Of a DNA stretch of 16,363 nt, positions 1,461 to 14,842 are shown one piece after another (positions within the stretch are counted from its first letter, which is position 1; each line of letters starts with the position of its first letter). This DNA comes from Candidatus Nanohalobium sp. (GTDB taxonomy: Archaea > Nanohalarchaeota > Nanosalinia > Nanosalinales > Nanosalinaceae), in NCBI GenBank assembly GCA_042217555.1, contig JBDGSL010000010.1, positions 1-16,363 on the forward strand, written 5' to 3'. A program made the translations under genes and the position numbers. Below the pieces are notes generated by a model that saw only the letters and a list, made by a program, of their open reading frames with translations, had not been told where the DNA came from and searched no databases.

Positions 1461-2438
1461 ATGGACGAGAAACTGGTTGTATGCCATTTTACGCCTTTGC
1501 TGTCTCTGGTTGATGGAGGTATAGAAAGGTCTGTTCTGCAGCAGAGAAAAGCGTTGGAAGATAGGAGTGTTGAAGTGGTTGAAAGTCCTTTCCATGGTTT
1601 TGATGTTCTTCATCTGAACTACTTTGATCCTGTTTCGATACTGGTGTTTTCCTGGGCTTATCTGTCAGGTCGTGATATAGTGGTTCATGCTCATACGACG
1701 GCTGAAGATTTCCGTGACAGCGTAAGATTTTCCAACTTTCTGGCTCCTCTTGTCGATGTTTTCACAGGTTTTTTCTATAGACGGGCTGATAGGGTTGTTG
1801 CACCTTCGCAGTATACCCGTGGGCTGCTTGAGGATAAAGGGGTTGGTTCAGTGAAGGTGGTTTCGAACGGTATCGATACAGACCGGCTTGAGGGCTGTTC
1901 CACTGTGGAGAAGGGAGAAGGTTTTGATGTAGTGAACCTTGGTTTTGTGTTTGAGAGAAAAGGCCTGTCGGACTTCGTCTCGGTTGCGGAGGAGATGCCT
2001 GAGGCCGAGTTCCACTGGTTTGGGCCTCGGGTAGAGGGATTCATGTCTTCTAACAGGGTTGAAGAAGCTATCCAGGACTCTCCGGATAATGCAGAGTTCC
2101 CGGGGTTCATAGATAATGTTAACGATGCTTTTGAACTTGCTGATGTGTTTTTTCTTCCGACCAGGGAGGAAAATCAGGGTATGTCTGTTCTTGAAGCCGC
2201 TTACGTAGGAGTGCCTGTAGTTATACGTGACATCCCTGTCTTCGAGCAGTGGTTTGAAGACGGCGTTCACTGCTTGAAAGCTGATTCTGTGGAAGGTTTC
2301 GTGGAGGCGCTGCAAATCCTGAGGGAGGATAGGGATCTGAGGCAGAGACTGGTGCGGAACGCACGTGAAGTAGCTGAACAGCATACACTGGATGAAGTAG
2401 GTAAGTCCCTGGAAAAAGTCTATACCTCTCTACAGTGA
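1461..2438 (+). CDS. GT4 (GT-B) glycosyltransferase, CpoA/glycolipid-synthase-like
   Basis: GGIERS, HAHTTAEDF, ADRVVAPS, SNGID, RKG, and the E-x7-E motif FFLPTREENQGMSVLEAAYVGVPVV. Confidence 0.9.
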   Translation: MDEKLVVCHFTPLLSLVDGGIERSVLQQRKALEDRSVEVVESPFHGFDVLHLNYFDPVSILVFSWAYLSGRDIVVHAHTTAEDFRDSVRFSNFLAPLVDVFTGFFYRRADRVVAPSQYTRGLLEDKGVGSVKVVSNGIDTDRLEGCSTVEKGEGFDVVNLGFVFERKGLSDFVSVAEEMPEAEFHWFGPRVEGFMSSNRVEEAIQDSPDNAEFPGFIDNVNDAFELADVFFLPTREENQGMSVLEAAYVGVPVVIRDIPVFEQWFEDGVHCLKADSVEGFVEALQILREDRDLRQRLVRNAREVAEQHTLDEVGKSLEKVYTSLQ

Positions 2439-3293
2439 GATAAGTACCACTCCAGCAGCCATTAACACTGAACCTGTTATCCTCTGGTAGAAGCCCTCGG
2501 TTTCTCTCAGCATCAAGTAGCTGAAGATGACTGCGACAGGTATGCTAAGTCTTTTGATAGCCACGACGTATGAGACCAGTGTCAGTTTGAGTGCCGTCAT
2601 CTGCAGGATTATCGAGGTTCCGCCGAGTACGCCGAGCAGGGCCAGTGGTTTCCACTCTGTTTTCACTTTTTCCATCCATCCCTCTGATTTTTTCATCATC
2701 ACCGGAAGCATAAACAGTGAGGAAAGCGTGTACACAGTTAACGGCCACATGATAGGTGAAGACATGTTTACTCCGATCTTATCGGTGTTAGCAGTTATCG
2801 AGTATATGAGGATGACAGCCATGATCAGCTGGACACCTCTTTCCTTCCAGAGTTTCTTGATAGGGTCCAGCAGTGTATCTGTTTTGTTTGCCTTCAGTGT
2901 ATAGGCTCCAAAGGCTATCAAAATCACTCCAAAACCTCCTAGAAGACTTGGGGTTTCTCCAAGCATCAGAAAAGAAGTTCCCATTACAAGCACCGGTGAG
3001 ATAGCAAACATAGGAGTTACAATCGACGTATCGGACTCTTTGTACGCCTTTGCAATCAGTATAGATGTAAAAGCTATGACTAGGCTCTGAGGCACTGCCA
3101 GAAGGAAGAATTTTATGCCTAGTTCCGGTAGCCCTGTGTAAAGTAGGGCTGCCAGCAGCACCGGCAACCCGAAGACCCTGGAACTGAAAGCTGTAACAAA
3201 CTCATCTGTTCCCAGTGCGTTCTTCCTCTGGTAAACACTCTGCAATCCTTTTATCAGGGCTACTCCGAAAGCCAGGATCAGTCCGACCTCCAT
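2430..3293 (-). CDS. EamA/DMT-family transporter
   Basis: About 10 hydrophobic segments in two repeats (S..TP.FA.SP...LGE.PS..G..GV.LI..G; LRE......R.TG..LM..GV.L). Start placed at ATG 3293 (MEVGL) because the longer ORF-track start overlaps the photolyase. Convergent 9-nt overlap with the GT4 3' end. Confidence 0.85.
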   Translation of the reverse strand: MEVGLILAFGVALIKGLQSVYQRKNALGTDEFVTAFSSRVFGLPVLLAALLYTGLPELGIKFFLLAVPQSLVIAFTSILIAKAYKESDTSIVTPMFAISPVLVMGTSFLMLGETPSLLGGFGVILIAFGAYTLKANKTDTLLDPIKKLWKERGVQLIMAVILIYSITANTDKIGVNMSSPIMWPLTVYTLSSLFMLPVMMKKSEGWMEKVKTEWKPLALLGVLGGTSIILQMTALKLTLVSYVVAIKRLSIPVAVIFSYLMLRETEGFYQRITGSVLMAAGVVLISL

Positions 3294-3312
3294 GAAAAAC
3301 ATGTTCTCAAGG

Positions 3313-4740
3313 CTAGTCTTCTTCAAGCTTCTCAAACCGTTTCACAGATTTTTCCCTCTCCTCGTCGTGATCTACTATCGGCTCCGGGTAGTCCTCACCA
3401 ATCTCAACTCCGCAGTTCTCCTGTTCCAGCTTGTTCATCTTCCACGGCTCGTGGATGTGCTCGTCAGGAACATCTTTCAGCTCCGGCAACCATTTTCTGA
3501 TATATTTCCCGTCGGGATCGTATCTCTCTGCCTGGGAGGTAGGGTTGAAGACGCGGAAGTAGGGCTGAGCGTCCGTCCCGATCGAGTAGCTCCACTGTAT
3601 CCCGCCGACCATCGCCGCGATCTCCGCGTCGACGAACATCTTCGAGAAGTAGCTGTGGACGTTGCGCCAGTCCAGCCACAGATCCTTGCAGGAGAAGTTG
3701 GTAACCACCATCCTCAACCGGTTATGCATGAAACCGGTCTTCTTTAACTGCCGCATACCTGCGTCAACAAACGGGTAACCGGTTTTACCTTCAACCCATG
3801 CCTTCCATTTCTCCGGTGCTTCCTCCTTAGAGTCCCAGTCCGGCTCGTTGTCCCTGTACTTCTCCATGAACGGTTCATCAACCTCGTGTGGATAGTTCCA
3901 GAGGATCTGCATGTAGTAGTCGCGCCACGCCAGTTCCTCCTGCCATGTTTCAATCCCTGATGTGTCGTCGTCCGGGTTCCTCGCCTTCAGACGCTCGGCT
4001 TCCCAGTAAACCTCTCTTATACTCACCGTGCCGAACTTCAGGTGGGGAGAAAGCTTTGAAGTCGAGTCCCTCCACGCATAATCCCTGTTCTCGTCGTAGT
4101 TCCAGATCTTCTCCTTGAACTCTTCTATCCTGTTTTTTGCTCCTTCACGACTCGGGTTCCAGATCCACTCAAAGTCTTCAGGTTGTTCGAAACCTAGTTC
4201 TTCGAGCGAAGGTATATTATCGCTTTCAAGTTCAGGGGTTTCATACTCCTCGACTTCCTGAGGCCGTCTCTTCTCCCTGTCAAACCATTTCTTCTTGTAG
4301 TACGTGTAGACTTTGTAAGGAGTCCCTGAGTTAGTCAAAATTTCCTCTTTCTCGAACATTACAGTATCTTTGAAGTTTTCCACAGGTACATCCAGTTCCT
4401 CGGAGATTTTCTCGTCTCTTTCCCGGGCGTACGGAGAATAGTCTCTGTTGTGGTAGACTGCGTCAGCTTCGATCTCTTCTATTATTTTTTCCAGCTGTTT
4501 CAGAGGTTTTCCTTTCCTGATAACGAGGTCTTTGCCTTCTTTGCTGCCTAGCTCCTGCTTAAGTTCTTTCAGAGTGTTATGCCAGAACTTTACTCTTGGA
4601 TAACCTAGCTCTGCTGTTTGGAAGTAGTTTTCATCCACTATATAGAGTGGTATGACTTTTTCGTGTTCTTTGGAGGCTTTGACCAGTGCTGTGTTGTCGT
4701 GTTCCCGCATTGATCTGCGGATCCATACGATCGCTGTCAT
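3313..4740 (-). CDS. phr: Deoxyribodipyrimidine (CPD) photolyase / cryptochrome family protein
   Basis: WIRRSMREHDNTAL, TSKLSPHLKFGTVS, ELAWRDYY, GKTGYPFVDAGMRQL..TGFMHNRLRM, FRVFNP..Q..RYDPDG.YIRKWLPEL, YPEPIVDH. Confidence 0.93.
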   Translation of the reverse strand: MTAIVWIRRSMREHDNTALVKASKEHEKVIPLYIVDENYFQTAELGYPRVKFWHNTLKELKQELGSKEGKDLVIRKGKPLKQLEKIIEEIEADAVYHNRDYSPYARERDEKISEELDVPVENFKDTVMFEKEEILTNSGTPYKVYTYYKKKWFDREKRRPQEVEEYETPELESDNIPSLEELGFEQPEDFEWIWNPSREGAKNRIEEFKEKIWNYDENRDYAWRDSTSKLSPHLKFGTVSIREVYWEAERLKARNPDDDTSGIETWQEELAWRDYYMQILWNYPHEVDEPFMEKYRDNEPDWDSKEEAPEKWKAWVEGKTGYPFVDAGMRQLKKTGFMHNRLRMVVTNFSCKDLWLDWRNVHSYFSKMFVDAEIAAMVGGIQWSYSIGTDAQPYFRVFNPTSQAERYDPDGKYIRKWLPELKDVPDEHIHEPWKMNKLEQENCGVEIGEDYPEPIVDHDEEREKSVKRFEKLEED

Positions 4741-4773
4741 GGAGGGCTTGTTAGATAAGTGAAGGGTGTTTTT

Positions 4774-5430
4774 TTACTGGTTTTGGAACAGTTCGTCGAG
4801 TTTGTTTTTGTGTTTGGATGGGCCGATGAGTATTATTGAGTCGTCTTTTTCGAGTTCTGTTTCGGGTTCTGCGTTGAGTGTTTCGTCTTTTTTTATGATT
4901 GAGGCAACGGTGAAGTCTTCCGGGAATTTTTTCCTGTGTCGCAGCTGTTTTACTGTTTTGCCGTTGAGTGTTCCTTCTGTGATCTTGGCTTTCAGTACTT
5001 CTCTTTCTCCCGGCAGGTTTGCGAGTTTGACGAGGTAGGGGTGTTCTACTGCTGATAGAAATTCGGAGAGCAGAAGGTCTGTGTGGCCTATGGCATGGGT
5101 GTCTATTATCTGGAATGCTTCGAAGTATTCGTCATCTTCCATCCTGGATATGACTTTGGGGACGCCGTATTTTTTGGCAAGGCTGCATACCACCATGTTT
5201 TCGTTGTCGTCTTTAAGGGTTGATATCATGATGTCTGCCTGTGTTATCCCTGCGTCTTCAAGCGCTGAAAGGTCCGAAGGTGATTTGTTTATCACGGTAG
5301 CTCCTGTGGATGAGTAAAGTCTTTTACAGCGGTCTTCGTCAGCGTCTATCACGACAAGGTCGTGTTTTCCTTCCAGCCTGTCCACAAGTTTTTTCGACAG
5401 GGTGTTGATACCGGTTATGACTATGTACAT
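4774..5430 (-). CDS. trkA: TrkA/KtrA-type RCK regulatory subunit of K+ uptake
   Basis: RCK-N (VVID.D, L..AGI..AD, T.DD..N...C.LAK.YGV..VI.R) plus RCK-C. ATG 5430 overlaps the trkH stop as TGATG; GTG 5433 is an alternative start. Confidence 0.85.
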   Translation of the reverse strand: MYIVITGINTLSKKLVDRLEGKHDLVVIDADEDRCKRLYSSTGATVINKSPSDLSALEDAGITQADIMISTLKDDNENMVVCSLAKKYGVPKVISRMEDDEYFEAFQIIDTHAIGHTDLLLSEFLSAVEHPYLVKLANLPGEREVLKAKITEGTLNGKTVKQLRHRKKFPEDFTVASIIKKDETLNAEPETELEKDDSIILIGPSKHKNKLDELFQNQ

Positions 5431-6842
5431 CACTTTGAATCTGGGAAGATGCTCCTATTAAAAATTGCCAGTACCGGCAGCATCTCAAGTCGACCGGCAA
5501 GCATCAGAAATATCCAGACAAACTTGCTGGCCCAGGTAAGTTGCTGCATCTCCGCCCCCGACATATATACAGGCCCCATATTACCTGCGGCAGAGACTAC
5601 ACCGGAAAGAGCTGCTGCCAGGCTTATATCATCGAACAGAAGAGTCAGCAAGGTGCCGATGAAGATGAATCCTATCCACGTGAAGAACAGTACGGCCACA
5701 GTGTGCAACGCTGAACGGTCAAGTATCTCCTCATCAAGTTTTACTTCGTTTATAGCTGTTTCAGGCAGGCTGTAGGATCTTAAACGTGTTTTAACCATTT
5801 CAATAAGTGTTTTAAGACGGAAGATCTTTACTCCTCCTGATGTGGATCCAACTGACCCTCCTACGAACATAACTCCTATTACTGCCATCTGCAGTACAGC
5901 TGAGAAGGCCATCACAGACATGGTGCCGTAACCTGTAGAGGATATGATCGAGGCAGCCTGGAAGACAGCGTCTAGAAATCTTCCAGCTCCAAGATCCAGT
6001 ATCATCGCCAGAGATACCAGTATGAATATCTGGCCGTAAAGCTTGAACTCGGAGTTTCTGAGGGCTTCTCCCTCGCCCTGAAATAGTTTGTAAAGTATTG
6101 CAAAGTTGGTGCCTCCTAACAGCATGAACGGTATCGTTGCTGCCTGAACAGTCTCTGAGAAGTATCCGATACTGGCTGAGTGCGTTGAGAAACCGCCTGT
6201 GGAAAGCCCGGAGAAAGCATGCAGAACCGAGTCGAACACTGGCATACCCAGAGCTATATAGGTACCTATCATGACAGAGGTGATGAAGCCGTAGACTCGC
6301 CAGAGCTCAGTTATAGACTTTTTAAGTGAAGGTCTTATTGAGCCAGGGTCGGACTTGTGTGTCTCTGCTGTGAAAAGCCTCCGGGAGATACCTCCTGACT
6401 CACGGATAACGGCTATGAAGAACGTCAGTATTCCAAGGCCGCCTACCCACTGCATAAGGCTCCTCCAGAACAGAAGTGAACGTGGAAGGCTCTCCGGCTT
6501 CAAAACCATGGAGATTCCTGTAGTCGTCAATCCTGCCGATGCCTCAAAAAAAGCATCCACAAAACCCAGCTCGGGGACGAACGGCAGACCGCTCAGTATC
6601 ACCGCTATACTCCATCCAAGTACCGTGGAGACCATAGCCTCCCGGACGGAAGGGTTAGAACCATTTCCTGACCACTTCATAACAAGACCTGCCAGAAAAG
6701 AGGATAAAGCAGCAACAAGAAACGGGTAAAGCCTGGAAAACGGTTCAGAGTAGTACAGACCTGTCAGAAAAGGAAGTACAAGTATGGCTGAAAACACCAG
6801 CATAAACCGGCCCATTATCCTCGAAACTACCTTCGGCCTCAT
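5430..6842 (-). CDS. trkH: TrkH-family K+ uptake membrane protein
   Basis: Four pore loops (GLTTTG, GLSTGGFS, SSTGYG, GNMGP), LLFWRSLMQWVGGLG, GGSVGSTSGGVKIFR, MLAGRLE. Confidence 0.93.
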   Translation of the reverse strand: MRPKVVSRIMGRFMLVFSAILVLPFLTGLYYSEPFSRLYPFLVAALSSFLAGLVMKWSGNGSNPSVREAMVSTVLGWSIAVILSGLPFVPELGFVDAFFEASAGLTTTGISMVLKPESLPRSLLFWRSLMQWVGGLGILTFFIAVIRESGGISRRLFTAETHKSDPGSIRPSLKKSITELWRVYGFITSVMIGTYIALGMPVFDSVLHAFSGLSTGGFSTHSASIGYFSETVQAATIPFMLLGGTNFAILYKLFQGEGEALRNSEFKLYGQIFILVSLAMILDLGAGRFLDAVFQAASIISSTGYGTMSVMAFSAVLQMAVIGVMFVGGSVGSTSGGVKIFRLKTLIEMVKTRLRSYSLPETAINEVKLDEEILDRSALHTVAVLFFTWIGFIFIGTLLTLLFDDISLAAALSGVVSAAGNMGPVYMSGAEMQQLTWASKFVWIFLMLAGRLEMLPVLAIFNRSIFPDSK

Positions 6843-6969: not shown

Positions 6970-7347
6970 ATGCAGATTACAATCGGAACTTCTGACGGCG
7001 AAACATTCCAGGAAGAGATCGAAGACAACTCACAACTAATCGGAAAAAAGGTAGGAGAAGAATTTGACGGTGGAATCATCGGATTATCAGGCTACACTCT
7101 CAAGATAACAGGAGGAAGCGACAGATCCGGATTTCCCATGAGAAAAAGCATCGAAGGCTCTGAGAGAAAAAGAGTGCTTCTGGAAGACGGCGCAGGAATC
7201 AACGAAGACGAAGACGGAGTAAGAAGAAGAAAAAGCATTAGAGGCAACACAGTTTCAGACGAAATCGAACAGCTCAACACACAGGTCGTGAAAGAAGGAA
7301 GTAAATCTGTTGAAGAACTTCTAGGCGAAGAAGAGGAAGAAGAGTAA
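6970..7347 (+). CDS. rps6e: 30S ribosomal protein S6e
   Basis: LIGKKVGEEFDG..IGL.GY.LKITGGSD..GFPMR, G.RRRKS.RGN; directly upstream of aIF2gamma as in other archaea. Confidence 0.96.
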   Translation: MQITIGTSDGETFQEEIEDNSQLIGKKVGEEFDGGIIGLSGYTLKITGGSDRSGFPMRKSIEGSERKRVLLEDGAGINEDEDGVRRRKSIRGNTVSDEIEQLNTQVVKEGSKSVEELLGEEEEEE

Positions 7348-7350
7348 TAT

Positions 7351-8538
7351 ATGTCAAAGATACCGGAAGTAAACATCGGCCTTGTAGGCCACGTCGACCA
7401 TGGGAAGACGACACTCACTCAAGCTCTCTCAGGACAATGGACAGACCAGCACAGTGAGGAACTTGAGAGAGGGATCACCATCAGGATAGGATACGCCGAC
7501 ATCACATACTACAGCAATGACGGCGAACTGAACGTCGAAGGAGAAGGTGAAGAGGAGAGAACTGTCTCACTGGTTGATGCTCCAGGCCACGAAACACTGA
7601 TGGCTAACGTCCTTTCTGGAGCAGCTATCATGGATGGCGCAGTACTTCTGGTAGCAGCTGACGAAGAAGTTCCACAGCCTCAGACACGTGAACACCTTGC
7701 AGCGCTTGACATAGTTGGCATTGATAATATTGTAATCGCACAGAACAAGATAGATCTGGTCTCTGAAGAAAAGGCAAGAGAGAACTATGAACAGATCAGG
7801 GAGTTTGTTGAGGGGACTGTCGCAGAGGACGCACCTGTAGTCCCTATCAGTGCGCAGCACGAGGTCAATATAGATGCGCTTCTAGAAGCCATTGATGAGG
7901 AGATTCCAACTCCGGAGCGTGACCTGGATTCTGATCCACGTATGCTTGTCGCCCGTTCATTCGATACCAACAAGCCGGGAACTTCGCCCAAAGAACTTAG
8001 AGGCGGTGTCGTAGGAGGTTCACTTGTTAGAGGAGAGCTTGAAGAAGGAGAGAAAGTGGAACTCAAACCAGGCGTCAGGAAGGACGGTGAAAACTTTGAA
8101 ACTGTTACGACTGAGGTGAAGAGCATAATACAGGGAGATACACCTGTCGAAAAAGGAAGACCTGGAGGTTTACTCGGAGTTGAGACAGATCTGGATCCGG
8201 CGATGGTCAAGTCCGACGGGCTCGCGGGAAATGTTCTCGGCCTGGAAGGAGAACTACCTGACGTAACTGATACGGTAGAGATCAAGGCAGAGCTTATGGA
8301 CCGTCTTGCCGGCGCTGAACAAGAAGAAGAGATAGACAACATCAGAGAACACGAAGCATTGATGCTTAACATAGGAACCACCAAGACTGCTGGTGTAGTC
8401 ACACAGGCCGGCAAGCACGTCAGACTGAATCTGAAGATGCCTGTCTGCGTAGAGGAAGGAGACAGAGTGGCGATTTCACGTCAGATAGGCTCTCGATGGC
8501 GGCTTATCGGCCACGGCAGGATAAACTCGATCGAATAA
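7351..8538 (+). CDS. eif2g: Translation initiation factor aIF2 gamma subunit
   Basis: PEVNIGLVGHVDHGKTT, RGITIRIGYAD, DAPGHE, PQPQTREHL, NKID, RSFD.NKPG, GGVVGGS, RWRLIGHG. Confidence 0.97.
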   Translation: MSKIPEVNIGLVGHVDHGKTTLTQALSGQWTDQHSEELERGITIRIGYADITYYSNDGELNVEGEGEEERTVSLVDAPGHETLMANVLSGAAIMDGAVLLVAADEEVPQPQTREHLAALDIVGIDNIVIAQNKIDLVSEEKARENYEQIREFVEGTVAEDAPVVPISAQHEVNIDALLEAIDEEIPTPERDLDSDPRMLVARSFDTNKPGTSPKELRGGVVGGSLVRGELEEGEKVELKPGVRKDGENFETVTTEVKSIIQGDTPVEKGRPGGLLGVETDLDPAMVKSDGLAGNVLGLEGELPDVTDTVEIKAELMDRLAGAEQEEEIDNIREHEALMLNIGTTKTAGVVTQAGKHVRLNLKMPVCVEEGDRVAISRQIGSRWRLIGHGRINSIE

Positions 8539-8542
8539 AAAA

Positions 8543-8556
8543 CGCAGAGTTTTTAA
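8543..8556 (+). promoter_or_regulatory. Putative BRE/TATA (CGCAGAGTTTTTAA) for the inserted cluster
   Basis: TTTTAA about 25 nt upstream of ATG 8579; the first 11 nt recur at 13793-13803. Confidence 0.45.
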
Positions 8557-8578
8557 GCAAGGCAAGGTTAATCCAGTT

Positions 8579-10156
8579 ATGGCCGACATTCTAAGCTCTC
8601 TCCTAGGATTTATCCACAGTGAACAGCCCGTGGTCCGTATACTGGTAGCTCTTGCATTTCTGATTGCAGGGCATCTCACGGTAAAGATATTCAGGATGCT
8701 TACACGTCGAACATGGATGCACAGAACAGAAGAAGCGACGAAGAAAGACATAGAGAGGAGGGAGGAAAAACTCGGCCTGGTATCAAACATACTCGACGGA
8801 GGGATAATAACGACAGCCATAATCTACCTCAACTCCGGTATCAGCACAGATATAATAAGCAAGGTATCGGAAAGCAGCCCACGTATCGTCTCCGCACTCC
8901 TCGTAGGTTTTCTGGGCATCATCCTTATCAGGATAGTTACAAAGGTGTTTGAAGGATTTCTCACTACTGTAGGGGTAAACAACTACCTCAGAGACATCGG
9001 TCTTTCCAGAAGCGCATCCAATGTGCTCTCAGCAGCTGTAAAGATCCTGATGTACATAGTGCTTTTCCAGGTAGTACTTAACCAGCTTAACGTCGGCTAC
9101 ACCTATCTTAACGAGCTGCTTACAGCCGCTACATGGGCCTTTGCTTTCATGATGGCAGGGATCGTATTCTACTCTCTCAAAGACCTGTTCCAGAACATGG
9201 CCGCCGGTTTCTACCTGAAGAACTCCCGTCTCGTACGGAAAGGTGAGGAAGTCAAAGTCGAAGGAGATACAGGAGAGATCAAAGAAGTCTCTCTGTTCTC
9301 CACCTCAGTAAACACGGACTCGGGATATACACTGTTGACACCGAACACCCAGTTGATGGACTCTCCTCTAAGAATCAAGAGAACCCAGAGCGACCTTGAA
9401 ACACTGGAGGATATAACAAGCTACTTTGTCGCTCAGAACCCGTCTTACTGCGGCCCGGCCTCTGCCGAGATGGCACTGGAGATATTCGGATACCGACACG
9501 ACCAGGAAGAGATCGGTGAAAAAGCCGATGTCGAGGAAGGGGAAGGAGTTGACGAAGATGACCTGATGGACGCCATCGAGGAATTGACGAACAACGAGGT
9601 CAGAACAGCCTGGATAGGATACGACAACATCACGGACCTGGAAGACGAGTACAAATCATGGTTCAACGATGGAGCACTGATAGTATCGAACTTCTACAAG
9701 CCTGAAATCTTCCCTGACGCATCCGCAGGACACTTTGTGCTTTCCGTAGGGGTAGAGGGAGATGAAATACTTAACCTGGATCCTTCAGGAACGAACGGTG
9801 GAGTATACTACGTCAACAAAGAAACGTTCTACGACGCGATGGCAGAGTTCGGCCACAAGAGAGGTTACATCGTCGTGGCACCGAAAGGAACCACAGCATA
9901 CTGGAGGATCAAGAACGACCTGATCTACGGCGACAAGAGCCTGTACGACGAACTTTCCAAAACACTCGAGTCAAGGCTACGTAAGATAATGAGGAAAGGA
10001 AGAATACTGAAGAACTCCACACCAGAATCCATGGAGAAATACATGGAGGACTGGACGTCTGAGGAGAAACTGACACGTGTATGGAAGCCGGAAGGCTTCT
10101 CAGGGGAAAAAGAAAAACTGGAGGGGGATGAAGATGAGACTACTGAAGATAACTGA
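8579..10156 (+). CDS. MscS-family mechanosensitive channel fused to a C-terminal papain-like (C39/phytochelatin-synthase-like) Cys-His-Asp domain
   Basis: Multi-TM N-terminus, then the MscS core KDLFQNMAAGFYL....VRKGEEVKVEGDTGEIKEVSLFSTSV.T.SG....PN..L, then Q286-NPSY-C291-GPAS, G-H385-F, LNL-D401-P. Confidence 0.85.
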   Translation: MADILSSLLGFIHSEQPVVRILVALAFLIAGHLTVKIFRMLTRRTWMHRTEEATKKDIERREEKLGLVSNILDGGIITTAIIYLNSGISTDIISKVSESSPRIVSALLVGFLGIILIRIVTKVFEGFLTTVGVNNYLRDIGLSRSASNVLSAAVKILMYIVLFQVVLNQLNVGYTYLNELLTAATWAFAFMMAGIVFYSLKDLFQNMAAGFYLKNSRLVRKGEEVKVEGDTGEIKEVSLFSTSVNTDSGYTLLTPNTQLMDSPLRIKRTQSDLETLEDITSYFVAQNPSYCGPASAEMALEIFGYRHDQEEIGEKADVEEGEGVDEDDLMDAIEELTNNEVRTAWIGYDNITDLEDEYKSWFNDGALIVSNFYKPEIFPDASAGHFVLSVGVEGDEILNLDPSGTNGGVYYVNKETFYDAMAEFGHKRGYIVVAPKGTTAYWRIKNDLIYGDKSLYDELSKTLESRLRKIMRKGRILKNSTPESMEKYMEDWTSEEKLTRVWKPEGFSGEKEKLEGDEDETTEDN

Positions 10157-10952
10157 CGGCCAGAGAAACCTAGAGAAACTTGACGAGTACTTCGAAGAAG
10201 TGGTTTCTGAAGATCTTGAGAAGATTGCACCTTCAATAGTAGGAAAGAAAATAGATGTTGCTATCAATTCAGAGTCTTTGACTAACTTTGATGCCGTCTT
10301 TGTTGAGATACCGGTTGAAAACGCTGTTTTTGGCAGAGTAATGCTTGAAGTAATGGAGGAGCGAGGAGTACCTGTAAACTACTCTTCAACCTCTTTCTTT
10401 GCGATGGCGAAGAAAAACTATCTCTACAGCGTACTTCACGAAAGAGACATCCCAACGCCTAAGACAGCTGTTGTGGCAGATGAAAAAGCTGCAAGAAATC
10501 TTGAAAACTATCTTAAAGGCCCACTGGTCGCAAGAAAGTTTGAAGAGTTGAAAGAGTCGGAGAAGAAAAAAATAGATACTGTAGAGGAAATAGGAGAGTT
10601 TACGGAGGGTGTAGAGTATGGAGAAAACTTTCTCCTGTTTCAGGAGTATTCAAAGGGATCTAAATATCGTTGTCTTGTAGTAGGAGATGATGTCGTTTCC
10701 TTAGAGGATACTTCCGAACACTGGTCTATCGGCAAGGAGAAGCTTAGGTATTCTAATGCTCCAAGCGATGTTGAAGAAGTTGTGCTTGATGCTAAAAACT
10801 CACTCGGCACACGAATGGCCGAAGTACTTATCAGAAACGAAGAGGTCGTAGACGTTAACCCGAATCCGGACCTTGAAATGTACTCTGATATCTCGGGAAA
10901 GGATGTATACAAAATCGTAGCGGACTCGTTGAAACAGGAGGTAGAAGGATAG
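10134..10952 (+). CDS. RimK-like ATP-grasp fold protein, catalytic motifs degenerate
   Basis: FDAVFV, K..LY..L....IPTPKT, FQEY, YRCLVVGD, DVNPNP align with RimK. Start moved to ATG 10134, which has GAGGGG 7 nt upstream. Confidence 0.75.
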   Translation: MRLLKITDGQRNLEKLDEYFEEVVSEDLEKIAPSIVGKKIDVAINSESLTNFDAVFVEIPVENAVFGRVMLEVMEERGVPVNYSSTSFFAMAKKNYLYSVLHERDIPTPKTAVVADEKAARNLENYLKGPLVARKFEELKESEKKKIDTVEEIGEFTEGVEYGENFLLFQEYSKGSKYRCLVVGDDVVSLEDTSEHWSIGKEKLRYSNAPSDVEEVVLDAKNSLGTRMAEVLIRNEEVVDVNPNPDLEMYSDISGKDVYKIVADSLKQEVEG

Positions 10953-11834
10953 ATGAAGTTCGCCATAATATACGGCGATGTCTCAACCACACACCGGTTA
11001 ATTATAGAGGAAGCGGAAGAGATATTTGATTCTGTGCTGGCAGCGCCTGTTGAAGGCTTGAAGTTTGTCCACAGCTCTGAAGGAAGCAAGGTGCTCTACA
11101 AGGATACGGATCTTACAGAGTTTGATGCAGTATATGTAAGGACCAACGACCAGGATGCATTATTCTCTGAACATCTTGTAGAGGTGTTGAATGAAGCAGG
11201 AGTTGTCACTCAGGCCGAGGATGAGTCCTTCGCATATTCAAATAACAAGTTTTACAGTATGAAGATCCTTTCGGAGAACAATGTTAATGTTCCGGATAGT
11301 TTCTACACTATCTCACCTGAAACTGCCGTTGATGCCGCTGAAAGACTCGGCTATCCGATAATCATGAAGACTATCGGTGGCGCCGGCGGCCAGGGAGTGA
11401 TGAGAGCCGGTTCGGAAAACGAGTTGAAGCCGGTCATGGACACGATGAAAGCATTTGAGCAGGACATCTGTCTTCAAGAGTATCAGGAACACGGAGGCAC
11501 AGATACAAGAGCAATTGTTATAGGGGATGAAATATTCGCTTACCGCAGATCCAGCAGCGGCGACGAGTGGCGTTCAAATGTAGCAGAAGGAGGCGAGAGA
11601 AAAGAAGCAGACCCGACCCCTGAGATGGAGGAAGCCGCGTTAACCGCAGCTAGAGCTTCAGGCTTCGATATATGTGGAGTAGACGTTATACAAACTGATG
11701 AAGAAGTCTATATCCTCGAACTGAACAGTGCCTTCGGCCTCTACAAAGCCATAAACGAGACCGTCGGAGAAAACGTTATCCTAAGGTTGGTGGAAAGAAT
11801 GCATGAAAGAGCGATGGAGGCGAACCAGGATTGA
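10953..11834 (+). CDS. RimK/LysX-family ATP-grasp amino-acid (probably glutamate) ligase
   Basis: FDAVYVR, NKF, PIIMKTIGGAGGQGV, CLQEY, DTRAIVIG, WRSNVAEGG, GVD, LELNS. Confidence 0.9.
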   Translation: MKFAIIYGDVSTTHRLIIEEAEEIFDSVLAAPVEGLKFVHSSEGSKVLYKDTDLTEFDAVYVRTNDQDALFSEHLVEVLNEAGVVTQAEDESFAYSNNKFYSMKILSENNVNVPDSFYTISPETAVDAAERLGYPIIMKTIGGAGGQGVMRAGSENELKPVMDTMKAFEQDICLQEYQEHGGTDTRAIVIGDEIFAYRRSSSGDEWRSNVAEGGERKEADPTPEMEEAALTAARASGFDICGVDVIQTDEEVYILELNSAFGLYKAINETVGENVILRLVERMHERAMEANQD

Positions 11835-12862
11835 AGACCGGCCTCGAACTGGAGTTCTGGGTCATCGACGAGAAAGGAGAACTTGACTACGCCAAGCCTG
11901 TAGCTGAAAGAGTATACTTCGCCTCACAGGAATTCTCACGCTCAATGATAGAAATACAGACAGAACCACATGAGGATGTAGAAGAACTGCTGAAAGAGGC
12001 CATCTCCAAGACAGAGATTCTGGCAGAACTAGCCAAGAAAGACGGCAAAAGAATAGTGCCTCTCGGAACACCGCTCAACTCGGGAAAAGTAGAGGTATAC
12101 GAATCCGAGAGATTTCAGATAGAACAGGAGGTAATAGGGCATGAAGTAAAACACGCGGGCAGGACTGCAGGCTTCCACTTACACTTCGAAAAAGAAGACG
12201 TATTGAGACAACTGAACACACTCACAGCTCTAGATCCACTCTTAGCCCTGACCAACGCCTCACCGCTTTATCAGGGAGAGAAGATCGCCTATGGATGCAG
12301 AAACAAGGTCTACAGACACAAGGCCTGCGGAGCATTCCCTGAGCAGAGAGAACTCTGGCCCTACATGGACTCGATCACAGAATGGCGCGAAAAAAGAGAG
12401 GAACTATTCGAGAAATTCGAAAACGAGGCCGAGAAGAAGGGAATAAAACCGGAAAGATTTGAAAGATTCTTCCAGCCGGAAAACGCTGTCTGGACGCCTG
12501 TAAAGCTGAGAGAGGACTACCCGACAGTTGAATGGCGAGCTCCAGACACCACACTCCTCACTGAAGTGATCAAACTTGTGAAGGCTGTCAAACCGATAGT
12601 CCAGAAAAAGAAGAGATCAGAACTACCAGAGTTCGAGAAAGTGAAGAACTTGTCAGAGAAGGCGATAGATAAAGGACTTCGATCCGGAGAAGTCAGAGAA
12701 TACATCGAAGAAATGGGTGTAGAGCACTCAAAGTTCTCTCCTCTCTCACAGCGGCTTGATCTCCCGGAAAAAGTCAGCAGGGAGAAGGCAAGAGAAGTGA
12801 GGCTGGACGTAGCTGAAAGATTGACCGAAGACCTGGAAGAAGCCAAAGAAATGATAAATTAA
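11831..12862 (+). CDS. Glutamate-cysteine ligase family 2 (GCS2/YbdK-like) carboxylate-amine ligase
   Basis: GLELEFWVID, QEF....IEIQT, GTPL, AGFHLHF, LALTNASPLYQG, W.PV..R....TVEWRAPD; TTG start in a TTGA overlap, with GGAGG upstream. Confidence 0.85.
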   Translation: MKTGLELEFWVIDEKGELDYAKPVAERVYFASQEFSRSMIEIQTEPHEDVEELLKEAISKTEILAELAKKDGKRIVPLGTPLNSGKVEVYESERFQIEQEVIGHEVKHAGRTAGFHLHFEKEDVLRQLNTLTALDPLLALTNASPLYQGEKIAYGCRNKVYRHKACGAFPEQRELWPYMDSITEWREKREELFEKFENEAEKKGIKPERFERFFQPENAVWTPVKLREDYPTVEWRAPDTTLLTEVIKLVKAVKPIVQKKKRSELPEFEKVKNLSEKAIDKGLRSGEVREYIEEMGVEHSKFSPLSQRLDLPEKVSREKAREVRLDVAERLTEDLEEAKEMIN

Positions 12863-13776
12863 AGCTGTTGGAAGGCCTCAACCAGCGAATCCATCACAGG
12901 CACCAGCTGTTCCTTCATCTCCTCATCACCGTAGAAACCAATTCCTGGCTTCGAGTTCAGCTCCACAATCCACGGCTCTCCATCCTCGTCGAAGAACAGG
13001 TCTACCGAGAAGAGGCAGGGCCTGTAGTCGAGTTCTTCATTGACCCTGTCAATTATATCCAGGGCCTTTTCCGGGAACTCTTCAGGACTGACTGCGTGCT
13101 GAGAACCTCCCTGTGAAACGTTGCTTATCTCGCCGTCGCTGTATCTCACGTAACCAGCCTTCAATTCGCCGTTAACGACTATACCTCTCAGATCGTGCGT
13201 TCCTTCAACGATACCTTCGATTCCAGAGCTGCTGTCAACAAATCTCTGGACGATATACTCCTCTTCTATCTCCGGTATATCCTCCTCGCTGTCGACTATG
13301 TGTATTCCTTTACCGCCGAAAGCGTAGCAGGGTTTCAGCACGATTTTTCCATACTGCTCCAGCATCTCACGCGCATTTTCTTCTGAGAAAGGTCTGGTCT
13401 CCGGCATCATTTCAGGAAAACGCTCGTAAGTCAGCAGTTTATCTTTACAGAGTTCCTCCAGCCCGGGATCGTTCAGGATTCCGATGCTCTCACTGATCTC
13501 CTGTTTGAAGGCCTTGGTCTCCTCATCGAAGTGGAACTTGTCGAAAACACCGTCAAGCTCAATATCCTCTACTTTCCTCCAGGAACCGTCCTCGCATACC
13601 CAGCCTCTGGAAAGATTCCCGTTTTCATACCAGTGATATTGAGCCTGTACAAGCCTCACGTCCTGGCCTTCGGCTCTTTCAGAGAAATAACCGTATGACC
13701 TGTTTGACTGTCCGTCGAAAGGCTTTTCTCCATCCCAGGTAACTTCTTCATCCCATAAAACACCGATATTCTTCAT
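12859..13776 (-). CDS. ATP-grasp ligase (RimK/GshB/YheCD-like), convergent with the cluster
   Basis: CKDK..TY, MPET, VLKP..AFGGKGI, YIVQRFV, HDLR, SNVSQGG, SVD, IVELNSKPG. Confidence 0.85.
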   Translation of the reverse strand: MKNIGVLWDEEVTWDGEKPFDGQSNRSYGYFSERAEGQDVRLVQAQYHWYENGNLSRGWVCEDGSWRKVEDIELDGVFDKFHFDEETKAFKQEISESIGILNDPGLEELCKDKLLTYERFPEMMPETRPFSEENAREMLEQYGKIVLKPCYAFGGKGIHIVDSEEDIPEIEEEYIVQRFVDSSSGIEGIVEGTHDLRGIVVNGELKAGYVRYSDGEISNVSQGGSQHAVSPEEFPEKALDIIDRVNEELDYRPCLFSVDLFFDEDGEPWIVELNSKPGIGFYGDEEMKEQLVPVMDSLVEAFQQL

Positions 13777-13792
13777 AACCAGAAACTCGGAG

Positions 13793-13806
13793 CGCAGAGT
13801 TTTAGA
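13793..13806. promoter_or_regulatory. Putative shared TATA region between the divergent ATP-grasp and PIN genes
   Basis: TTTTAGAA (minus strand TTCTAAAA) lies roughly 25 nt from both ATG 13776(-) and ATG 13828(+). Confidence 0.35.
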
Positions 13807-13827
13807 ACTAACCTACAAAACACCAGT

Positions 13828-14247
13828 ATGACACGCGAAATCATACTAGACACCAACTTCCTGACAGCACCCTTCCAGCTCGACTCCATCGACATATTCC
13901 AGGAACTCGAAAGAGTCTTCCCCAACTCCAAAATCTACACAATCGACGACGCAGTACAGGAAGCCAAAAGCATAGAACAAGGCAAATACGGCAACCTCGT
14001 AGAGAAACTGATAGAGAAGAAAGACATCGAAGTACTGGAAACAGAGGACGAAGAACCAAGTTCTTCTCGTACAGTAGAGGGAGAAGGCAGCGTAGACGAC
14101 CTACTAGTACAGATCTCCCGGGACTATGTTGTTGCGACGAACGACAAAGAGCTGAAGGAGAGACTGATAGAAGTCGATGCAGAAGTTATTCATATCAGAA
14201 ATGAGAGCTATCTAGAAGTACTGAACAGGAAAGATCCTGGGTTCTAA
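13828..14247 (+). CDS. PIN-domain protein (Fcf1/Utp24-like, the one normally following aIF2gamma)
   Basis: IILDTNFL, V.QE, VDD.L, VVATNDKELKERL; syntenic position upstream of rpoE'. Confidence 0.88.
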   Translation: MTREIILDTNFLTAPFQLDSIDIFQELERVFPNSKIYTIDDAVQEAKSIEQGKYGNLVEKLIEKKDIEVLETEDEEPSSSRTVEGEGSVDDLLVQISRDYVVATNDKELKERLIEVDAEVIHIRNESYLEVLNRKDPGF

Positions 14248-14768
14248 TTAGTCAAATTTTAGACAAATTATTAATAAGAAGATTTGGCGAAAACAGCCAA
14301 GTCGGCGCCAAACCTATAAAAGACCTAGAAGACGATTTAAAAGAACTAATTAGCGAGTACAAAGATGAAGAAGAGTTAGCACATAAATTTCTAGATCTGG
14401 ATCAGAAGGAACTCGATAAACTACAAAAGATTTTCATCTCACCTGCCCACACTAAAAGAACACAAAAATATGAGGAAGAAGAAAATCTGAAAGAATTCCT
14501 GAATAAAGTCATAGACAAAAAACTACAGCTACTAAAAGCAGGAAAGAAATATTCTGAAAAACTCCTTTCCACCTTAGGAAAAATGCATGAAGACGAAGAA
14601 GAAGCAATTACTATCATAAGAAAATATTATAATCAAAAAGCAGAGGAGGAAACAATGAAACTAATCAAAATGACTGAAAGCGACTACAAAACAGTAAAGC
14701 AAGGTGAAGAACAAATCGAAGCAGGAATTAATGAACTCCAAAATGTGAAGGGGGAGTTAAATTCGTAA
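14247..14768 (+). CDS. Hypothetical AT-rich, charged alpha-helical protein; start uncertain (possible ATT) or 5'-damaged
   Basis: The frame of the 61-aa track ORF is stop-free back to TGA 14202. From ATT 14247 it gives 173 codons, (I)SQILDKLLIRRFGENSQ...KGELNS. No ATG/GTG/TTG occurs before 14583. Confidence 0.55.
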   Translation: MSQILDKLLIRRFGENSQVGAKPIKDLEDDLKELISEYKDEEELAHKFLDLDQKELDKLQKIFISPAHTKRTQKYEEEENLKEFLNKVIDKKLQLLKAGKKYSEKLLSTLGKMHEDEEEAITIIRKYYNQKAEEETMKLIKMTESDYKTVKQGEEQIEAGINELQNVKGELNS

Positions 14769-14842
14769 ATTGCGGCTTTTAATGAAGTCGGTGATTATTG
14801 GTTTGATTAATGGTAGTTTAGAGAACGAGATGGCAGTGACCA

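Follow-up and report, generated by a model that had tools for sequence, protein, structure and literature searches.

RimK, a tetramer, adds alpha-linked glutamate to the ribosomal protein RpsF (PMC10092738, PMC11957791) and makes free poly-alpha-glutamate in vitro (PMC10375531, PMC11957791). Glutamate chains are removed or cut by RimB (PMC11957791), by RloA (PMC11957051) and by TMCPs, the human members of which deglutamylate (PMC10499314). The Pseudomonas aeruginosa rloABC locus combines a polyglutamate-cutting retropepsin, a membrane protein whose transglutaminase domain is inactive and an ATP-grasp protein, and its mutants are hypo-osmotic-sensitive (PMC11957051). The methylofuran ligase pair MyfA and MyfB builds mixed alpha/gamma branched polyglutamates (PMC8141765). 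Here we describe a cassette of five genes (hereafter, A to E) on a 16,363-nucleotide stretch of DNA from Candidatus Nanohalobium sp. (contig JBDGSL010000010.1 of assembly GCA_042217555.1; this whole stretch is called the window). It comprises a three-gene core, A-B-C, and a slot behind C that holds D and E in this genome. The cassette is real, conserved and uncharacterised, and is read here as a RimK-type build-and-trim variant with an unusual channel-peptidase anchor. From the comparisons given here, it appears to work most like rloABC and rimBK, but it belongs to neither.

The five open reading frames are intact between the genes for aIF2-gamma and a PIN-domain protein (positions are those of the window; aa, amino acids):

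7351..8538, + strand: aIF2-gamma, left flank, assigned by Pfam; conserved, with a tree that recovers the genera and follows the species tree

8579-10156, + strand: gene A, 525 aa, core; MscS-type channel fused to a C39 cysteine-peptidase domain

9434..9781, + strand: C39 catalytic residues of gene A, from alignment columns: Gln286 (9434), Cys291 (9449), His385 (9731) and Asp401 (9779)

10134-10952, + strand: gene B, 272 aa, core in Nanohaloarchaeota; catalytically degenerate RimK paralogue

10953-11834, + strand: gene C, 293 aa, core; intact RimK-family ATP-grasp protein, a predicted alpha-L-glutamate ligase

11831-12862, + strand: gene D, 343 aa, TTG start, accessory slot; GCS2/YbdK-family carboxylate-amine (gamma-glutamyl) ligase

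12859-13776, - strand: gene E, 305 aa, accessory slot, convergent; YheC/D-like ATP-grasp ligase

13828..14247, + strand: PIN-domain gene, right flank (PF18477)

The genes and junctions were confirmed as given in a preliminary description of this DNA: A and B overlap by 23 nucleotides (nt), B and C abut as TAG-ATG, C and D overlap by TTGA, and the convergent stops of D and E overlap by TTAA. Its count of three intact ligases beside a degenerate paralogue was also borne out, as C, D and E keep their catalytic residues and B has lost them. Genes B to E are each present in a single copy in the window genome.

The likeness to rloABC lies in the joining of a RimK-like ATP-grasp protein, a fusion of a membrane protein with a peptidase-like domain, and a polyglutamate peptidase in one locus; in addition, the peptidase-like domain can be inactive, there is a link to osmotic stress, and the physiological product is unknown (PMC11957051). 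RloB has seven transmembrane (TM) helices and a periplasmic, inactive transglutaminase domain, whereas A has an MscS fold and a presumably cytoplasmic, often intact C39 domain; RloA is secreted, whereas the partner retropepsins found here have no signal peptide; and the rlo locus is described with neither a pseudo-ligase nor a swappable slot. Neither a seven-helix inactive transglutaminase nor a secreted retropepsin is present in the window locus, where A has MscS and C39 domains. With the RimK-RimB(-RimA) system in Pseudomonas and the E. coli RimK (PMC11957791, PMC10092738) the cassette shares a RimK-family protein with the donor-site residues kept, a RimB-family DTG retropepsin that adjoins C in five genomes outside the phylum, and a patchy, horizontally moved distribution. 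Unlike those systems, C scores 100.8 bits against the 331 of the RimK equivalog PRK10446 (ribosomal protein S6 glutamate ligase), RimB was not found in the five nanohaloarchaeal genomes searched for it, and rim has neither the membrane anchor nor the dead subunit. A PF05618 gene beside rimK is absent from the window locus, which has no retropepsin, and present in 5 of the 11 outside carriers. To our knowledge, archaea lack RpsF, and S6e is unrelated to it. A 2009 survey of amidoligase neighbourhoods by Iyer et al. may include similar RimK-GCS2-peptidase sets.

The relatives' slot also recalls MATCAP/TMCP and TTL/TTLL (PMC10499314), with MATCAP-family metallopeptidases, a TTL-related ATP-grasp protein (E) and a writer/eraser logic; here the archaeal MATCAPs at the locus have HExxH against the HExxxH of TMCP, E is nearer to YheC/D and ArgX/LysX than to TTL, and the window genome has no MATCAP. 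No C1 cofactor context like that of MyfA/MyfB (PMC8141765) is seen at the cassette. No paper on the cassette or on an MscS-peptidase fusion was found in the open-access texts, a search that did not cover supplements (including that of bioRxiv 10.1101/2023.07.03.547478), which may list the genes. As a RimK system of the build-and-trim kind, the cassette would be the first candidate from archaea. A first substrate for prokaryotic MATCAP and YheC/D proteins might come from it, along with a clue to what rloABC makes.

The occurrence of the cassette was profiled in 70 nanohaloarchaeal genomes, 69 of which were mapped (one had no fetchable locus). A-B-C are contiguous in 64 of the 69, and one more has B-C at a contig start. 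Counted by gene among all 70, the C39 and tail half of A is present in 64, C in 65, a strong match to D in 13 and a strong match to E in 35. The gene for aIF2-gamma stands directly before A in 59 of the 65 cassette genomes, the remaining six being contig ends. In three genomes (G001, G006, G054) it is joined to the PIN gene and no RimK match was found, so the site can lack the cassette. The conserved unit is the three genes A-B-C, and D and E are exchangeable. The exact five-gene set of the window occurs in 8 of the 69 genomes. The genes do co-occur in other genomes, the failure of which the preliminary description had named as refuting; its self-contained five-gene pathway is not supported, with D in 13 of 70 genomes. 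Nanohaloarchaea are tiny salt-loving symbionts with genomes of about 1 Mb and few biosynthetic pathways, yet nearly all keep the three-gene core at one site and trade the accessories.

Four kinds of slot content were distinguished. D with or without E fills the slot in 13 genomes (8 with the exact five genes), and where strongly matched D is always directly behind C. A P-loop protein, sometimes accompanied by an M14 peptidase of the AstE/AspA type, is found in 19 genomes. One to three tandem copies of E are found in 25, with a MATCAP peptidase added in 16, and 7 genomes have an M14 peptidase, a second RimK and MATCAP (the M type); one further slot was unseen. Against atlas clusters with DUF1611 on 11-16% of their members, the slot P-loop protein scores 0.98; it shows no match to solved structures beyond the Walker A stretch. 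DUF1611 proteins are reported to have a D-glutamate acetyltransferase role. In a Priestia peptide cluster, a homologue of the P-loop protein stands with an ATP-grasp gene on either side. Three slot types are available in complete named genomes, D+E in L072, E+MATCAP in L079 and the P-loop protein in L100, and named homologues of A are proteins of Nanohalobium, Nanohalovita, Nanohalococcus and Nanosalina.

Several individual loci were recorded as well. Two genomes of genus g32 (L045:5847-6770; L207) have a second copy of C behind MATCAP and a slot gene for a 275-aa coiled-coil protein. At a second ribosomal address (L131, L132, L135-L137, L215), A-B-C with E and the P-loop gene run divergently to the S12-S7-EF2-EF1alpha operon. 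One record, L077, is labelled Colwellia polaris but has the full nanohaloarchaeal gene order with the cassette, and its label is evidently wrong.

The cassette is exchanged between genera, always at one site. Slot type changes 14 times on the aIF2-gamma tree and 5 times on the C tree, the minimum possible being 4 (39 genomes; the aIF2-gamma tree was built carefully, the C tree quickly). For the C, D and E proteins of the window, identity to genus g17 is 84-89%, against 56-75% for the flanking genes of that genus. To two genomes of their own genus the three proteins are only 40-68% identical, and there S6e, aIF2-gamma, PIN, RpoE and S24e reach 76-96%. Identity to g17 also differs along A, at 44-45% in the membrane part and 83-84% in the C39 part, a jump that points to a crossover inside A. 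In approximately unbiased (AU) tests, monophyly of the window's own genus was rejected for C (p 7.6e-8), and the grouping found for C was rejected for aIF2-gamma (p 3.5e-4); the tests used 12 of the 39 rows, with rows and groups picked after tree inspection, and a simple model.

The domains of A that pass the Pfam cut-offs are MS_channel_1st_1 (PF05552), MS_channel_2nd (PF00924) and Peptidase_C39_2 (PF13529). Four hydrophobic segments (aa 16-198, by hydropathy) are followed by an MscS beta-domain (aa 202-262), a papain-fold C39-like domain (aa ~270-436) and a conserved helical tail ending in RxWxP. The membrane part is of the MscS/CmpX type, and solved MscS structures align to A only over its last TM helix and beta-domain (aa 184-264, E 2e-11). 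Unlike MscS channels, A scores below the cut-offs of all NCBIfam MscS models, and the C39 domain and tail stand where the C-terminal alpha/beta domain of MscS usually sits; the vestibule domain PF21082 is matched in an ordinary MscS and has no match in A. PF13529 scores 29 bits against a cut-off of 24, with atlas features and structure agreeing on a C39-like fold. The C39-plus-tail profile had no match among solved structures, and Phytochelatin (PF05023) on the window A reached 14.8-17.5 of the 24.9 bits needed. The MscS beta-domain is cytoplasmic, so the C39 domain and tail of A should be cytoplasmic too. Where the Cys-His pair is lost, the remainder of the C39 domain is still conserved, as is the tail, which suggests that A also has a structural role besides that of a peptidase. 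No relative was found on viral contigs with an alignment of the C-terminal half, and no form fused to RimK was found among proteins >533 aa at E 1e-20, the latter being weak evidence.

Two features of families f4 and f5 concern A. Most of their A proteins (L039, L044-L057) have an (L/I)DEFT motif at the end, after RxWxP, which is absent in f1. They also have a short second MscS/CmpX-type gene, divergent from S6e and beside TrkAH (L045, L046, L049, L054-L055; e.g. L054:10785-11675), whose product could co-assemble with A.

Gene C matches RimK in Pfam (1.8e-33) and TIGR00768 at 144.6 bits, over the cut-off of 143.4, and its closest solved relatives are the RimK proteins of E. coli and Pseudomonas (2e-44). 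R63, K99, K139, the Gly loop, D184, R186, R199, R207-S208-N209, D244, E256 and N258 are invariant in 42 of 42 sequences, a set that includes the residues for ATP, Mg and donor glutamate. C is probably catalytic, judging by analogy with RimK, and would then be an alpha-L-glutamate ligase of that family. Pseudomonas RimK contacts poly-glutamate through seven residues, S7, R8, S14, R64, S68, R189 and N262 (PMC10092738). C retains counterparts of three of them (R186 and N258 at the donor site, and R63), and the 68-equivalent is variable. B is a weak RimK match by Pfam and is matched by a profile of C over its length (probability 99.7). The Lys equivalent to C K99 is kept in 40 of 41 B sequences, while the Gly loop is missing, Asp244 is kept in 0 of 41 and Glu256 in 2 of 41. 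All B proteins form one clade (support 99) within the A-linked RimK family and apart from LysX (quick tree, 34 rows). B is a probable non-catalytic subunit.

Gene D matches GCS2 (PF04107, 6.7e-16) at 58.9 bits, over the cut-off of 21, and E6, E8, E41, H116, E234 and R236 are invariant in 11 of 11 sequences. D shares the fold family and acidic metal-binding residues with GCS2/YbdK ligases and the haloarchaeal gamma-Glu-Cys ligase, but it stands outside every named GCS2 equivalog: the best score against the glutamate-cysteine ligase equivalogs (PRK13515-13518, TIGR02050) is 70.6 bits (of 176.4), with cut-offs spanning 176-425, and none of the 11 members, at best E 1.4e-19, reached an NCBIfam cut-off. 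Gene E passes the cut-off of ATPgrasp_YheCD (PF14398, 1.5e-15, 57.6 against 26.8 bits), has a TTL match of 7e-8, and keeps K113, K148, D195, R197, R211, N219, D259 and E272 in 24 of 24 sequences. We know of no function assigned to the YheC/D family.

The state of the C39 Cys-His pair was scored in 63 nanohaloarchaeal genomes, two cassette genomes being unscorable. The pair is intact in 32 (13/13 D types, 18/18 P-loop types and 1/24 E types) and lost in 31 (23 E types, 7/7 M types and the one unseen slot). MATCAP is in the slot of 22 of the 31 lost-pair genomes and 0 of the 32 intact-pair genomes, as expected if MATCAP replaces the peptidase step; anywhere in the genome, MATCAP was found in 0 of 13 D types, the window genome included. 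Every peptidase that joins the locus (RimB-type retropepsin, MATCAP, AstE/AspA M14) belongs to a family with members cutting glutamate chains or acyl-glutamate, and the natural active/dead peptidase pairs show which enzymes to compare. A rule that MATCAP excludes an intact C39 was rejected at the genome level by the P-loop genomes holding both, and kept for slot MATCAP. A general rule that intact C39 needs GCS2 or the P-loop protein was likewise rejected, since all 13 outside loci (11 genomes and two metagenome loci) keep the pair.

Outside the phylum, full-length A was found in 11 of 331 archaeal genomes sampled (0.6-1.6 Mb), with RimK genes directly after it in 9 of the 11. Five have A-C with a convergent DTG retropepsin of 118-135 aa and no B, the retropepsin passing the cut-off of PF05618 in four and of Asp_protease_2 in the fifth; four have A-B-C, two of them with an additional RimK. 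Five of the 11, all with an intact pair, lack a GCS2 match (the P-loop protein was not searched genome-wide there), and MATCAP was not found in five of five outside genomes searched, where no control matched. A profile search yielded about 45 near-full-length A representatives at 50% clustering. Most of those below the top ten have 8-11% Asp+Glu, several have no dyad, and the named ones are from Woesearchaeota and Iainarchaeum. A halophile-specific form of the osmolyte listed in the preliminary description was rejected because the core is also present in archaea with non-acidic proteins. A separate GCS2-YheC/D-M14 operon in one of the outside A carriers hints at D and E acting as a pair alongside a peptidase of the M14 type.

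In small-genome outside archaea, GCS2-YheC/D-M14 and M29 aminopeptidase-GCS2 sets (L242:5313-8521; L241:1324-6008; L219:10983-14136) form a second ligase/peptidase pairing.

The core order in 64 of 69 genomes, the residues of C, the free poly-alpha-glutamate made by RimK, the slot peptidase families, the tie of slot MATCAP to a lost Cys-His pair, the small-molecule-type slot genes (GCS2, P-loop), the architectural precedent of rloABC and the exchange between genera count for reading A-B-C as a membrane-docked, non-ribosomal build-and-trim system whose product is a free glutamate-rich oligopeptide or polymer and not part of a protein. We hold this reading tentatively, at somewhat less than an even chance. 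C, by its family and residues, would add alpha-linked L-glutamates with ATP as RimK does, and B as a dead subunit would co-assemble with it in a RimK tetramer. A would form an MscS-fold oligomer with a cytoplasmic tail that docks the ligase under the pore, and its C39 domain would cut or release the chain. The slot behind C would set the chemotype. Here D may make a gamma-glutamyl primer or branch and E may add or link a further residue, whereas other lineages would use the DUF1611-like P-loop protein instead. In some lineages a MATCAP or M14 metallopeptidase may replace the C39 activity, and outside the phylum a RimB-type retropepsin may replace or accompany it. The product or its cut pieces might serve as a glutamate store or pass through the pore, the least supported step. 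The peptidase, ligase, oligomer and pore functions are all predicted from sequence. In its general form, the non-ribosomal glutamyl-peptide system with a channel-tethered peptidase that the preliminary description proposed stands as the best reading, and the Gln-Cys-His-Asp of C39 are all intact here. An osmotic role is plausible, given the TrkAH potassium-uptake genes two genes upstream in most nanohaloarchaeal loci and the hypo-osmotic sensitivity of rlo mutants. A bolder version, which we regard as rather unlikely, is that an MscS-fold channel became both scaffold and gate for a machine handling a peptide polymer, with a heteromer of RimK and pseudo-RimK under the pore, a trimming C39 ring and swappable tailoring ligases or tubulin-code-type erasers (YheC/D-TTL-like, MATCAP, M14, RimB), whose lineage-specific chemotypes would be exchanged like a capsule locus in osmotic or host interactions of DPANN symbionts.

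Several observations weigh against the build-and-trim reading. C has invariant Tyr7, Gly8 and His14 where RimK has the acceptor-chain contacts Ser7, Arg8 and Ser14 (mapped by eye), and its acceptor may therefore differ from that of RimK. The pore helix of A has bulky aromatic residues, unlike that of E. coli MscS, and the pore may not conduct. On the C tree, the E types group into one clade (support 85) and the M types into another (93), and the match between pair state and slot probably reflects about two independent losses. Nine P-loop genomes have an intact pair together with an unlinked MATCAP, and four lost-pair genomes have no MATCAP match, two of these being cut contigs. Outside the phylum, an intact dyad occurs beside RimB, so that two peptidases coexist, and A has no neighbouring RimK in 2 of the 11 genomes, one of which has a retropepsin, a degenerate RimK and a RimK at another place.

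The cassette could instead serve the reversible glutamylation of protein C-terminal tails, written by C and E and erased by C39, MATCAP, M14 or RimB, with ribosomal proteins such as S6e or P0 as targets and the channel coupling the process to membrane tension, in an archaeal parallel to what RimK-RimB do on RpsF or to the tubulin code. We consider this unlikely, though likelier than the alternatives that follow. A protein C-terminus, which the preliminary description had named among the refuting substrates, would here be the acceptor. RimK-RimB modify RpsF (PMC11957791) and MATCAP/TMCP act on protein tails (PMC10499314). There is also the weak match of E to TTL. S6e is found one gene ahead of the cassette, and the unlinked MATCAPs stand in or beside the L1-P0-P1-AlaRS run in 10 fetched loci. 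Only two of the 1209 open reading frames of the window genome end in at least five Glu, and these are S6e (window 6970-7347) and a P0-like protein (G000:C7:2948-3901; matched to nanohaloarchaeal P0 genes by eye). However, an EE ending of S6e occurs in just 21 of 38 nanohaloarchaeal loci and in 0 of the 8 outside carriers whose S6e was inspected, and S6e as a universal acceptor was rejected on these counts. Acidic tails are a general feature of halophiles, S6e is not a neighbour of the cassette outside the phylum, and a conserved ribosomal target accords poorly with the quick swapping of the cassette and with partners such as GCS2 and the P-loop protein. Improbable, in our view, is a secreted or surface short peptide assembled by D, C and E, matured by C39 as in peptidase-containing transporters and exported through the MscS-fold pore, with chemotypes selected by hosts or viruses. 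The fusion of C39 to a membrane oligomer, the four chemotypes at one site and the C-D-E exchange between genera (84-89% against 56-75% in the flanks; AU p 7.6e-8) would suit it. The C39 dyad, however, is lost in 31 of 63 genomes that retain the gene, the partner retropepsins (118-147 aa, DTG at residue 25-47, no signal peptide by eye) point to cytoplasmic turnover, and there is no precursor-peptide gene within the locus.

The glutathione- or phytochelatin-like thiol listed in the preliminary description would have D make gamma-Glu-Cys, C and E extend it, and C39 act as a phytochelatin-synthase-type transpeptidase. D is of the GCS2 family, and weak Phytochelatin matches occur in the C39 domain of 21 of 40 members (best 1e-5). 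The atlas structure matches include phytochelatin-synthase clusters (TM 0.54-0.55), and all 13 D genomes keep the dyad. Against this, D stays far below every glutamate-cysteine ligase cut-off, and C and E reach 41.6 and 29.4 bits where glutathione synthase (GshB, TIGR01380) needs 299; D is missing from 52 of the 65 cassette genomes, an intact dyad goes with no GCS2 match in five outside genomes, and gamma-glutamyl transpeptidase was not found in five of five genomes searched. A thiol product is thus very improbable. Still harder to credit, and largely refuted, is a reading in which a housekeeping RimK homologue glutamylates a cofactor or carrier (F420, pterin, LysW) and the channel sits next to it by chance. 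The MptN, LysX and CofF models do match C at E 1e-21 to 1e-36, but all far below their cut-offs (MptN 125.9 of 350 bits, LysX/ArgX TIGR02144 114.4 of 275.6, CofF 74.9 of 300), and E likewise stays below them. LysW and CofE, which bear on the LysW and F420 possibilities that the preliminary description had raised, were not found in the 94%-complete window genome, where positive controls matched. True LysX genes elsewhere in two relatives form a branch separate from the A-linked RimK, and the position of RimK genes after A in 9 of 11 outside genomes also speaks against a chance neighbour.

Three observations from relatives concern the genes just discussed. The unlinked MATCAPs (L229-L238) form two subgroups, in or beside the ribosomal stalk run Spt5-L11-L1-P0-P1-AlaRS in 10 of 10 fetched loci. 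The nanohaloarchaeal P0 genes seen have an acidic tail, and P1 keeps a GLG.LF-type end. Two nanohaloarchaeal genomes (L243:5805-11820 and L244) have a separate LysX-type amino-acid biosynthesis cluster, unusual for the lineage, with LysX confirmed by Pfam and the remaining genes assigned by eye.

Two short elements, at the two ends of the cassette, bear on its transcription:

8543..8557, + strand: element like a transcription factor B recognition element (BRE) and TATA box, CGCAGAG-TTTTTAAG, 21 nt upstream of the gene A ATG, from sequence only

13793..13807, no strand: AT-rich element, CGCAGAG-TTTTAGAA, located where E and PIN start in opposite directions, ~20-25 nt from both start codons by eye

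CGCAGAG-TTTTTAAG is a probable own promoter of gene A, giving a leaderless or short-leader transcript. A TT[TA][TA][TA][AT] motif starting 24-34 nt upstream of the ATG was found at 27 of 39 A loci, with control counts of 1/40 for B, 0/41 for C and 0/11 for D that are lenient because these controls lie inside coding DNA. The A/B overlap is 23-32 nt in 34 of 40 loci. Together, the own TATA-like box of A and this overlap suggest that A-B-C(-D) are probably a separate transcript; E is read against their direction. The insertion into the aIF2gamma-PIN operon that had been described was confirmed as to site (by the 59 of 65 loci and the three empty sites) but not as to operon, since the cassette probably has its own promoter and splits the ribosomal gene run instead of riding in its transcript. 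CGCAGAG-TTTTAGAA is a probable promoter region common to E and PIN. A CGCAGAGTTTT pair at both cassette ends was considered as a target-site duplication and dropped, being better read as promoter boxes. Repeats in the region were chance-like only, a sigma-70 promoter scan, which is unsuited to archaea, gave chance-level counts, and an Rfam search returned 0 matches.

On the right, the interval from PIN to RpoE' (window 14250-14770) is AT-rich (38% GC) with only short or start-less reading frames, and relatives have other genes or none there. On the left, the upstream genes at window 1461-6842 encode a GT4 glycosyltransferase, an EamA transporter, a DNA photolyase, TrkA and TrkH, and photolyase-TrkAH is kept upstream in family f1.

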